Below the pieces are notes generated by a model. It ran no database searches. It was not told where the DNA came from and was given only the letters and a program-made list of their open reading frames with translations. The translations under genes were made by a program, and so were the position numbers. Shown here in pieces: positions 34,086-36,834 of a stretch of 50,212 nucleotides of DNA (within the stretch, counting starts at the first letter, position 1; the number at the start of each line of letters is the position of its first letter). This stretch comes from Escherichia coli (GTDB lineage: Bacteria; Pseudomonadota; Gammaproteobacteria; Enterobacterales; Enterobacteriaceae), in NCBI RefSeq assembly GCF_003334315.1, contig NZ_QOWR01000032.1, one strand, 5' to 3'.

Positions 34086-35588
34086 TTACGCTACGGCTGC
34101 TTTCGCCGCTTTGTCTGCAGCGTCATCCTGCGTCATGCGGTGCAGTTTCGGCGCGGTCAGCAGCATCAGTACTGCAATAACGGCAGTAGCGACACCAATC
34201 TGCAAGAATACGCGACCATAGACTTCCAGTGACATCAGCGGATCGGTAACGTTATCCGGCACAGCCATCATACCCGCAACATAACCACCAATCAGGTTTG
34301 CACCGGCAGTGGTCAGGAACCAGCTACCCATAATGAAGCCCATCAGACGCTGCGGAACGAGTTGAGCAACCATTGCCAGACCCAGACCAGAGATCATCAG
34401 TTCCCCGATGCTCTGCAGGCCATAGCTTGCGACCAGCCAGCTTACAGACACGATACCAGCGTCAGACGCGAATTTCGCACCCAGCGGCAGAATCAGGAAC
34501 GCACCAGAACACATCACCATGCCGATTGCAAACTTGGTTGGCATCGGCAGGGTATCGCCCATCTTGTTATAGATAGCGGCCAGAATCGGACTACCGATGA
34601 TGATCCAGAACGGGTTCAGTGCCTGATACTGCTCAGGTTCTACGGCCAGACCCAGAATGGAGTGCTCAACGTTACGAATCGCAAAGAAGTTCAGTGACGT
34701 TGGCATCTGGCTGTACAGCACGAAGAAGATAATGGCTTCGAGCATCAGGATGAAGGCAACGATCATTTTACGACGCGCAGCACCTTTCATCGCGAAGGCT
34801 TCTTTACCGAAGATAACCACGATACCGAAGGCAACAACGCCCAGCGCCATACGCGCAACTTCCTGATTGTGCAGCAGCCAGGTGGCGATAGCGATCAGTG
34901 CCACAACACCAATAATGGTCAGCAGCAGGTTACGGTAGTTGATAGGCTCGAAGTCTGGTTTTGAACCGTACTGTTTAACCCAGCGTTGGCAGAAGGCGAA
35001 GTTAACGATAGTGATCAGCAGGCCTACAACGCTCAACGCAAACGCAACACTCCAGCCGTATTTCGCGGCCAGCCACGGCGTAGCAATCATAGAGAAGAAA
35101 GAGCCGATGTTGACGGACATGTAGTACATGGTGAATGCACCGTCCAGACGCGGGTCGTTTTTCTCATAGCATGTAGAAAGCAGAGAAGACGGGTTAGCTT
35201 TAAACAGGCCGTTACCGACCGCAATAGCCGCCATACCCATATAAACGATACCGGCGTCGTGACCAGACCAGGCAACCAGAGCATAACCAATCGCCAGCAC
35301 AATAGCGCCGAGCATAATTACGCGTTTAGTACCCAGTACCTTGTCACCTAACCAGCCGCCGATAGCGACCAGACCATAAACCAGGGCACTAAAGGAAGAG
35401 AAAAGGGTGATTGAATCCGCTTCAGACATACCCAGTTGTTTAACCAGGTAAACAGCCATAATTCCTTGTAGGCCGTAATAACCAAAACGTTCCCATAACT
35501 CAATCGAGAAGATGAGATAGAACGCCTTCGGTTGTTTGAAAGCGTTCAAACTGACGCTTTCAGTTGGTTTTTGGTTTGCAGTGGACAC
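34086..35588 (-). CDS. dtpA: DtpA (TppB) proton-dependent di/tripeptide permease, POT family (500 aa)
   Basis: ORF 500 aa [49 protein letters not shown] (POT signature). Confidence 0.93.
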
Positions 35589-36172
35589 TTTTACCTCTTT
35601 TTTTACATCCCATATTAACGGGGGTGCTTTCTCGCGTTATGTATAAAAAACATACGCGCAATTGTTATAGTGGGAGGGGAAACAGCAGGTAATGTTCACT
35701 ATCTTGCACTTTCAGACAAGTCCTTTGTAATAATCTGTTACATATAACTGAGGCGGGGAATTCAACCATTCCGGGAAATGTTATCCAGCGTTAAATTTTT
35801 CAAAAAACGTAACGGCAGATTTTTTCACTGCACTGAGAGGGGGGTGATGGCTTAACGGCGATATGTTCTGCTATTTAGCGTTTTTACTAGTGAGATAGTC
35901 CAGTTTCTGAAAAATAGCCAGTGTAATGTTTTGTAGGTCAATATTTGTTGCGTGTGTAAATTTAAATGATTTTAACCTGATTCTTGCAATGTTTTTACAT
36001 TGCGACAGCATCGTGATCTTGATCACGAATGAATAGAAAATTTCGCTATTAAAAAAACAATTAACCTGCATTTTTGGTTATCCGCAAACGGATTACCTGA
36101 TGATAACGCTAAGCAATGGCATCATTGACGTTAAAAAGATGTTTTAAAAGAGGATAAAGAAAGGTTATCAAT

Positions 36173-36192
36173 GGGGTAATCGGTGTTACCCC
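36173..36192 (-). terminator. Hairpin immediately downstream of nth (end of rsx-nth operon)
   Basis: GGGGTAA-TCGGTG-TTACCCC 7-bp stem about 7 bp after the nth stop; moderately T-rich downstream on the minus strand. Confidence 0.4.
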
Positions 36193-36198
36193 TTTTCT

Positions 36199-36834
36199 TC
36201 AGATGTCAACTTTCTCTTTGTATTCACAAAGATCTTCAATAATACAAGAGCCACAGCGGGGCTTGCGGGCAATGCAGGTATAACGCCCGTGCAGGATCAA
36301 CCAATGGTGGCAGTCGACTTTAAACTCTGCTGGAACCACTTTCAGTAGCTTTTCTTCTACCTGTTCGACGTTTTTCCCCGGCGCAAATTGAGTACGATTA
36401 CAAACGCGGAAAATGTGCGTGTCGACAGCAATAGTCGGCCAGCCGAATGCAGTGTTTAATACGACGTTGGCTGTTTTACGACCTACGCCGGGCAGGGCTT
36501 CAAGCGCAGCACGATCTTCCGGAACCTCGCCATTATGCTGCTCCAGCAAGATACGGCAGGTTTTGATGATATTTTCTGCTTTGCTGTTATAAAGCCCAAT
36601 CGTTTTGATATAGGTTTTCACCCCTTCAACGCCCAGTTCAAGCATCGCTGCAGGCGTATTCGCCACCGGGTAGAGTTTCGCCGTCGCCTTATTAACACTG
36701 ACATCGGTCGCCTGAGCGGAAAGCAGTACGGCAATCAGCAATTCAAAAGGCGAACTGAAATTAAGCTCGGTGGTGGGATGAGGATTGTTCTCACGCAGGC
36801 GAGTGAGGATCTCCAGGCGTTTTGCTTTATTCAT
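36199..36834 (-). CDS. nth: Endonuclease III (211 aa), [4Fe-4S] DNA glycosylase
   Basis: ORF 211 aa [44 protein letters not shown]...; C-terminal Cys cluster (CIARKPRCGSCIIEDLC). Confidence 0.95.
   Translation of the reverse strand: MNKAKRLEILTRLRENNPHPTTELNFSSPFELLIAVLLSAQATDVSVNKATAKLYPVANTPAAMLELGVEGVKTYIKTIGLYNSKAENIIKTCRILLEQHNGEVPEDRAALEALPGVGRKTANVVLNTAFGWPTIAVDTHIFRVCNRTQFAPGKNVEQVEEKLLKVVPAEFKVDCHHWLILHGRYTCIARKPRCGSCIIEDLCEYKEKVDI

Follow-up and report, generated by a model that had tools for sequence, protein, structure and literature searches.

Conserved far-upstream elements at fixed spacing in the nth–dtpA gap of Escherichia coli, a likely control region of dtpA

What is the function of the long gene-free gap that separates nth from dtpA, the gene for a di-/tripeptide importer, in Escherichia coli? 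The question was approached by computational analysis of a 50,212-nucleotide stretch of contig NZ_QOWR01000032.1 (assembly GCF_003334315.1), hereafter the window, together with published data sets. According to the list of open reading frames (ORFs), dtpA occupies positions 34086–35588 on the minus strand, with a GTG start, and nth occupies 36199–36834 on the same strand, leaving a gap of exactly 610 bp at 35589–36198. The window is reversed relative to K-12, in which the gap corresponds to 1712159–1712768; the RefSeq annotation contains nothing there, and no gap feature is annotated in the RefSeq region of strain 300709 or in any of the E. coli matches listed. A 1-kb query spanning the gap matched 5,424 of 5,426 complete genomes at 95–100% identity. 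The original prediction, made from the letters of the sequence, described an unusually long, AT-rich, gene-free spacer and offered two readings, a large OmpR-linked regulatory region and an unannotated small RNA. The description was accurate: the boundaries are exact, the G+C content is 36.7% compared with 51.2% for the whole window, of the stretches without ORFs of at least 150 amino acids, the gap is one of the window's five longest, and both of the quoted A/T tracts are present in one copy each on the plus strand, at 35961–35977 and 36037–36066. Between the two readings, we consider it likely that the gap is cis-regulatory DNA of dtpA and holds no separate gene. The regulatory reading is supported by peaks of OmpR and GadX in chromatin immunoprecipitation with exonuclease digestion (ChIP-exo), by a site bound by CRP in vitro, and by conserved boxes that extend to approximately −385 relative to the transcription start site (TSS) of dtpA. 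In kind, the gap is an ordinary multi-factor promoter region; its points of interest are the depth of control to −385, the frozen spacing of the boxes and a conserved CRP site outside the known activation geometries.

The proximal 250 bp of the gap is the already known dtpA promoter. By SMRT-Cappable-seq, the TSS of b1634 maps to K-12 position 1712673 (window 35684) and is labelled ‘same’ as the database entry, and four independent data sets, namely, SMRT-Cappable-seq, OmpR ChIP-exo, GadX ChIP-exo and an evolved mutation, agree on this one TSS. The mutation was reported from long-term stationary-phase evolution, in which an A-to-T change at nth/dtpA intergenic (+503/−108) arose in three cultures and dtpA mRNA rose approximately 23-fold. 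It falls at window position 35696 and converts AACATT to TACATT, a hexamer located where expected, 7 nt upstream of the TSS. From the TSS data and this evolved −10 change, the promoter was identified as TTGTCT-17-AACATT (35684–35719, minus strand), with the −35 hexamer TTGTCT at 35714–35719, a spacer of 17 bp and the −10 hexamer AACATT at 35691–35696. In a scan of the orthologues with our own −35/−10 matrix, it was the sole conserved sigma70-like site on the dtpA strand, present in 94% of orthologues. A built-in consensus promoter scan of the gap gave 0 sites, and the same matrix applied to the E. coli gap revealed nothing strong beyond the scores of the dtpA promoter itself. The conserved promoter-like matches on the antisense strand fall within the proximal region, at boxes C–D (see below) and in the dtpA leader, and are probably incidental. 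One of them, ATAAAA-17-TATAGT (35666–35671, plus strand), is kept in 89% of species; since it overlaps the conserved leader sequence CCCACTATAACAAT, its conservation is probably incidental as well.

The binding of two regulators to this promoter has been mapped by ChIP-exo. The published coordinates refer to U00096.2 and were converted to NC_000913.3 with an offset of +1976, deduced from the dtpA coordinates. The OmpR peak (1710621–1710680; window 35701–35760) was scored as ‘Act’ with its centre at −46.5, and the GadX peak (1710534–1710554; window 35827–35847) was scored as ‘Rep’ at approximately −151. Within the OmpR peak lies the proximal OmpR site, box D (ATGTAACAGATTATTACAAAGG, 35722–35743, minus strand, approximately −59 to −38), whose tandem TnTAAC half-sites, TGTAACAGAT and TATTACAAAG (approximately −58 to −39), keep their position in all 78 species. 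The arrangement, with OmpR at tandem 10-bp half-sites upstream of the −35 element, is that of an OmpR-activated promoter. A PdtpA(−201..+15)–lacZ fusion showed a strong drop in activity in an ompR deletion strain, and the response of dtpA to the level of OmpR is biphasic, with activation by low OmpR and repression by high OmpR. Further upstream, the nearly invariant box C (AAATTTAACGCTGGATAACATTT, 35776–35798, minus strand, −111 to −92) contains two TnTAAC half-sites 10 bp apart. As these two (TTTAAC and GATAAC) are similar to those of box D (TGTAAC and TATTAC), box C is a candidate for a second OmpR dimer site, which would lie on the same side of the helix as box D at a distance of 53 bp, or approximately five helical turns. 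The GadX peak coincides with a conserved box, AGTGAAAAAATCTGCC, and the two together cover 35814–35847 in the ChIP-exo data and the alignment. Binding of YdcI upstream of dtpA has also been reported by ChIP-exo, with no coordinates stated.

How far upstream does the control region of dtpA extend? Loci from 80 species of Enterobacteriaceae (81 sequences including the window) were aligned. The nth gene lies upstream of dtpA in all 80 species loci, and the gap measures 570–640 bp in 70 of them, indicating that its length is not due to chance. The alignments and the conservation profile revealed conserved boxes up to approximately 385 bp upstream of the dtpA TSS and, in the 71–78 species over which the box statistics were compiled, these boxes alternate with spacers that are saturated in sequence and unchanging in length. 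Measured to the promoter anchor, box A1 stands at 364 bp in 63 of 71 species (range 362–365) and the CRP site at 323 bp in 56 of 65; the distance to the promoter is 195 bp for box B2 (62/62), 169 bp for box B3 (71/71), 95 bp for box C1 (76/76) and 39 bp for box D (78/78). As a control in the same genomes, the dtpA–gstA gap (about 105 bp) spans 98–166 bp, and the distance from the nth stop codon to box A1 is 93–160 bp in 69 of 71 species, and 258 and 698 bp in the remaining two. The fixed box distances, set against the varying neighbouring gaps, indicate selection on spacing over about 365 bp, which argues for a protein–DNA assembly that keeps both distance and helical face. Free spacer sequence combined with a length frozen over 364 bp is a natural signature of geometry-dependent regulation, which has rarely been documented for bacterial sigma70 promoters. 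The identity of the boxes to E. coli is 58–96%, while that of the spacers is 18–58% outside Escherichia, no higher than the approximately 50% of the four-fold degenerate sites of dtpA; within Escherichia, the differences likewise cluster in the spacers.

The upstream edge of this control unit is marked by loci with longer gaps, in which an additional gene lies upstream of an unchanged unit of roughly 480 bp. The gap is approximately 1.1–1.2 kb in Kosakonia and Phytobacter, and in Kosakonia it contains an ORF for a predicted membrane protein of 141 amino acids, on the opposite strand and adjoining nth. With this ORF lying between nth and the control unit, the unit is delimited on its upstream side at about box A. 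The layout of the dtpA-proximal approximately 450 bp is unchanged in Phytobacter, and the box-to-promoter distances hold in all loci searched. The control unit stays approximately 450 bp from dtpA even with a gene inserted upstream.

The most distal element, box A (36033–36068, minus strand), was defined by conservation and alignments, and consists of CAGGTTAAT, a T7 tract, a non-conserved 6–7 bp and AAATTTTCTAT. No paralogous copy was found in E. coli, so box A is single-copy. Its segment TAGCGAAATTTTCTA matches 13 of 15 positions of the Lrp SELEX consensus, a lead rather than a test. Beside the CRP site lies an inverted repeat, GCAATGT-AAAAA-CATTGC (35986–36003), which in other genera takes the form TAACA/TGTTA with 11-bp spacing; TGTTA-N6-TGTT repeats resemble ArcA-type response-regulator boxes, and this too is a lead and not a test. 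Expression of Salmonella tppB is inducible by leucine and anaerobiosis. The Shewanella dtpA is a direct ArcA target. Lrp, ArcA, IHF, CytR, PhoP, TyrR and NagC were considered for boxes A and B by resemblance to consensus sequences, and none of these assignments is claimed. Next to the inverted repeat is spacer 1 (35938–35985), saturated in sequence and invariant in length, whose identity to E. coli is 0.18–0.46, a random level, outside Escherichia. The middle boxes, B (35857–35937, minus strand), were read from the alignments as ACAAAACATTACAC, ATTTTTCAGA (35906–35915), CTATCTCACTAG (35888–35898) and AGCAGAACATATCGCC (35857–35872), and include a partial IHF-like match, by reading of the alignment. 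The conserved box AGTGAAAAAA sits between boxes B and C.

Two observations were made on spacer 1 itself. Set against the other Escherichia species, among them E. albertii and E. whittamii, the E. coli version of this 48-bp segment is approximately 54% divergent and free of indels, compared with approximately 30% divergence at the four-fold sites of dtpA; it looks like segmental replacement or accelerated change with length exactly preserved. A few genera have, within spacer 1, a GC-rich hairpin flanked by an A-run and a T-run and resembling a bidirectional terminator, approximately 250–290 bp upstream of the TSS (Pluralibacter L040 and L072, RIT691 L051, Franconibacter L048 and Pseudenterobacter L047; A2 alignment columns ~112–145); E. 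coli is without it.

The CRP site, ttCGTGAtcaagaTCACGatg (36009–36029; core 36012–36027), is centred at 36019.5, approximately −335.5 from the dtpA TSS. Table 1 of a Footprint-seq preprint (January 2026) lists it with its centre at 1712342, an inferred dissociation constant of approximately 2.1 nM in vitro and dtpA as the gene, and it is among the 37 high-affinity CRP sites labelled ‘novel’ in that preprint. The E. coli core matches 8 of 10 positions of TGTGA-N6-TCACA, in agreement with a site of high affinity, and 59 of 78 orthologues have, at the same position, a core that retains at least 8 of the 10; in most other genera the site is nearer to the consensus, as in TGTGATCnnGATCACA. Neither a matrix scan of the orthologues nor inspection of anchored sequences revealed a conserved promoter-like site within 100 bp of the CRP site on either strand. 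With neither strand carrying a conserved −10 element at the distances of class I or class II, the CRP site is one that is bound in vitro without a promoter of its own.

Downstream of the TSS, the final part of the gap is a 96-nt leader of dtpA (35589–35683, minus strand, from the TSS at 35684) with a conserved C/A-rich start, CCCCTCCCACTATAACAAT, two hairpins and a Shine–Dalgarno sequence, GAGG, at 35594–35597 ahead of the GTG start at 35588. In hairpin 1 (35633–35658), eight of nine pairs are changed on both sides across species, and hairpin 2 (35609–35622) is 98% paired. For the leader structure overall, 85% of cells are paired, compared with 33–45% in slid controls, and 0 of 500 shuffles reached the observed values. 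Such compensatory changes in the pairs of a 5′ untranslated region (UTR) are those of a structured cis-regulatory leader. A scan against Rfam pointed to no ligand or riboswitch family for the leader. In Salmonella, tppB (dtpA) is a verified target of the R1 region of GcvB, and RIL-seq chimeras were found in E. coli. A 12-codon upstream ORF lies within hairpin 1 (35615–35653, minus strand); beyond the Escherichia–Citrobacter group, neither its ATG nor its frame is conserved, and it is probably non-functional.

A model that accommodates these elements can be outlined. Past the nth terminator and a filler of approximately 100 bp, the remainder of the gap probably serves as the control region of dtpA. 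The data sets show RNA polymerase starting at 35684 from the weak TTGTCT-17-AACATT promoter with its poor −10 hexamer, activation by OmpR bound just upstream, repression by GadX from approximately −151, action of GcvB on the 96-nt leader and, in vitro, nanomolar binding of CRP at approximately −335. The distal boxes (A, the CRP site and B) would be further putative protein-binding sites acting on the same promoter. All of these boxes may form one nucleoprotein complex, in which the sequence of the spacers is free to drift and their length is held. Its likeliest form would be a CRP-bent loop or a wrapped array that brings the distal factors onto the OmpR-bound promoter, and it would integrate carbon status (cyclic AMP), envelope and acid signals (OmpR and GadX) and, probably, amino-acid or oxygen signals. 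A looped or wrapped mechanism of fixed geometry specifically is a tentative proposal, to which we would give somewhat less than an even chance. More doubtful is its most explicit version, a long-range switch over the approximately 365-bp indel-free region, in which a bend made by CRP at −335 puts the factors of box A and of the TAACA/TGTTA repeats in contact with the OmpR-occupied promoter, in a loop like that of ompF F4 with CRP as the hinge. If true, this switch would explain both the activation by low OmpR with repression by high OmpR and the frozen spacer length with free spacer sequence.

Several points weigh against this explanation of the gap. The link of the distal boxes and the CRP site to dtpA expression is drawn from sequence conservation, and the putative assignments of Lrp, ArcA and OmpR (box C) are resemblances to consensus sequences. 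The −201..+15 fusion is already OmpR-dependent without the distal boxes. The CRP site stands at none of the class I, II or III positions (near −41.5, −61.5, −71.5, −82.5 and −92.5). Its sequence has decayed in Kluyvera, Kosakonia, Pseudocitrobacter and Superficieibacter, in which the other boxes and the spacing persist; since the site is lost while the spacing stays, CRP alone cannot account for the geometry. A test of AA/TT periodicity for DNA wrapping gave many peaks from sequences that are non-independent. Finally, the gap has been used as a supposedly neutral landing pad, with no harm reported.

The other reading of the original prediction, an independent transcript, was followed up most closely in the form of a separate distal unit, in which a condition-specific CRP-controlled promoter in or beside box A would give rise either to a short non-coding RNA or to an alternative, long leader of dtpA. 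Such a unit would account for a CRP site of nanomolar affinity that has no TSS within reach, which needs explaining, and for the TAACA/TGTTA inverted repeat that follows the CRP site in most genera; a hairpin with a T-run occurs within the next 130 bp in 9 of 78 orthologues, compared with 1.4 expected from shuffles, and the nth hairpin of Escherichia has its T-run on the opposite strand. These terminator-like sites are few and differ in position, so that no conserved terminator was found; the inverted repeat, tried as an RNA hairpin, is paired in 59.6% of cells, a weak result; and the surroundings of the CRP site lack both a conserved sigma70-like promoter on either strand and, in the alignments, a −10 element at class I/II distance. 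A plus-strand small RNA ending at the nth hairpin was also considered and rejected, as the T-run on the plus strand is found in Escherichia only and no fitting promoter was found. A scan of Rfam 15 at E-values up to 10 gave five noise matches of 10.9–19.1 bits, compared with gathering scores of 37–228.9 bits, and no annotation of such a unit appears under the E. coli matches listed. In the Term-seq tables curated by Adams et al., no 3′ end falls in 17120xx–17127xx, and nth, dtpA, rsxE and gstA are without entry. Among the SMRT-Cappable-seq entries listed, there is no second capped full-length TSS in the gap. The transcript data sets were obtained from growth in LB, M63 or M9, and the SMRT-Cappable-seq library selects long RNAs; with few growth conditions sampled and a library of this kind, a condition-specific short transcript may still exist, a further point against our interpretation. 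None of the marks of an intergenic small RNA gene (own promoter and terminator, discrete ends and a family match) was found, and we regard a separate distal unit as unlikely.

The distal boxes could instead be bound by nucleoid-associated proteins or global regulators (H-NS, Fis, IHF, Lrp and CRP) for a chromosomal or architectural role unrelated to dtpA, for example, insulating dtpA from read-through from rsx–nth. The AT-richness of the DNA, the activity of the −201..+15 fusion without the distal part, and the fact that a site of high affinity for CRP in vitro need not regulate are all in agreement with this possibility. It is nevertheless quite unlikely, since the box distances are exact to the dtpA promoter and not to nth, and the boxes stay with dtpA when a gene is inserted between them and nth. 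It is very improbable that the gap is a relaxed, neutrally evolving AT-rich spacer behind a short conventional promoter: the overall identity to distant genera of just 51–60% would suit such a spacer, but the boxes up to −385 retain their high identity next to spacers at random level and four-fold sites at approximately 50%, and the 364-bp length is invariant beside variable neighbouring gaps. The chance that the gap encodes a small protein is practically negligible. Several ORFs of 30–42 amino acids lie in the gap, and the only one of at least 60 is an ATG-initiated ORF of 66 codons on the dtpA strand (35871–36071, minus strand). The original prediction had doubted this ORF, rightly: it has no Shine–Dalgarno sequence, it is truncated to 15–38 amino acids in E. 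albertii, E. whittamii and other Escherichia, and it is absent elsewhere. It is also unannotated in the RefSeq records examined, the conservation is box-like without three-base periodicity, and no conserved ORF was found in the distal region among the orthologues; the ORF is not a gene.

Control of dtpA by the gap was then compared with known systems. In ompF, OmpR binds at sites F1–F3 and at the far-upstream F4, together with IHF. Like dtpA, ompF has an OmpR-dependent sigma70 promoter behind a co-directional gene, and the asnS–ompF gap is 602 bp (K-12, L083 1184–1785), compared with 610 bp for nth–dtpA; both have conserved elements approximately 350–385 bp upstream and a biphasic response to OmpR. 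In our own comparison, 14 of 19 positions agree between the proximal OmpR site of dtpA and the F4 stretch of ompF. The 9-mer ACATTGCAA is present both in the ompF F4 stretch and beside the dtpA CRP site (35984–35992), within chance expectation. Unlike ompF, dtpA has a single OmpR ChIP-exo peak, and its far-upstream module is made up of the CRP site and boxes, with no recognised OmpR site. As regards a loop of the ompF type, the distal boxes of dtpA are strictly fixed in distance, but there is no second OmpR peak and the IHF-like match is partial. According to a later paper that cites Goh 2004, dtpA is unresponsive to osmolarity, unlike ompF. The CRP site of dtpA shares near-consensus sequence, nanomolar affinity and cross-genus conservation with class I, II and III CRP promoters; in contrast to these, it lies approximately 335 bp from the mapped TSS, with no promoter at 41.5–93.5 bp on either strand. 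At this distance, none of the known contacts with RNA polymerase is open to it, and a nanomolar CRP site among far-upstream elements is explained by no current model of CRP action. As in intergenic small RNA genes of enterobacteria, among them the OmpR-controlled MicF and OmrA/B, the gap is long, AT-rich, OmpR-linked and contains hairpins; unlike these genes, it is without its own promoter, conserved terminator, transcript ends and Rfam family. The GcvB-repressed dppA and oppA leaders resemble the dtpA leader, also a listed R1 target whose 5′ UTR is structured and has a conserved C/A-rich stretch, though this likeness is confined to the final 96 nt of the gap.

As a result of this analysis, an unannotated gap now consists of a mapped promoter and defined far-upstream elements. 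Promoter-up mutations of dtpA recur in long starvation, and this recurrence indicates that the control of dtpA matters for fitness. The gap is also in wide use as the nth–ydgR gap, a standard ‘neutral’ landing pad (Kuhlman and Cox 2010) that hosts genome-integrated promoter reporter libraries. Insertions at the landing pad may disconnect dtpA from the distal elements, or place reporters beside DNA bound by CRP, GadX and OmpR.

At the other end of the gap, the nth terminator hairpin of the original prediction, GGGGTAATCGGTGTTACCCC, was located at 36173–36192 (minus strand), directly after the nth stop codon. It is followed by the filler (36069–36172), which evolves fast, varies in length, is of low conservation and separates the terminator from the dtpA control unit. 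The Term-seq tables did not contain the 3′ end of nth. Every genus has a hairpin at the end of nth, with sequences unrelated between genera, and in most genera other than Escherichia the T-run after it is on the nth-sense strand, as in an ordinary terminator of nth. In Escherichia (36173–36198), a good T-run is present solely on the strand opposite to nth (GGGGTAATCGGTGTTACCCC TTTTCTT), and the nth strand continues as ATTGATAACC. The 141-amino-acid ORF was read in the locus of Kosakonia oryzendophytica (L046, 1335–1760), and a similar start of the extra DNA after nth was observed in other Kosakonia and Phytobacter (L049, L055, L057, L058, L060, L062, L073 and L082).

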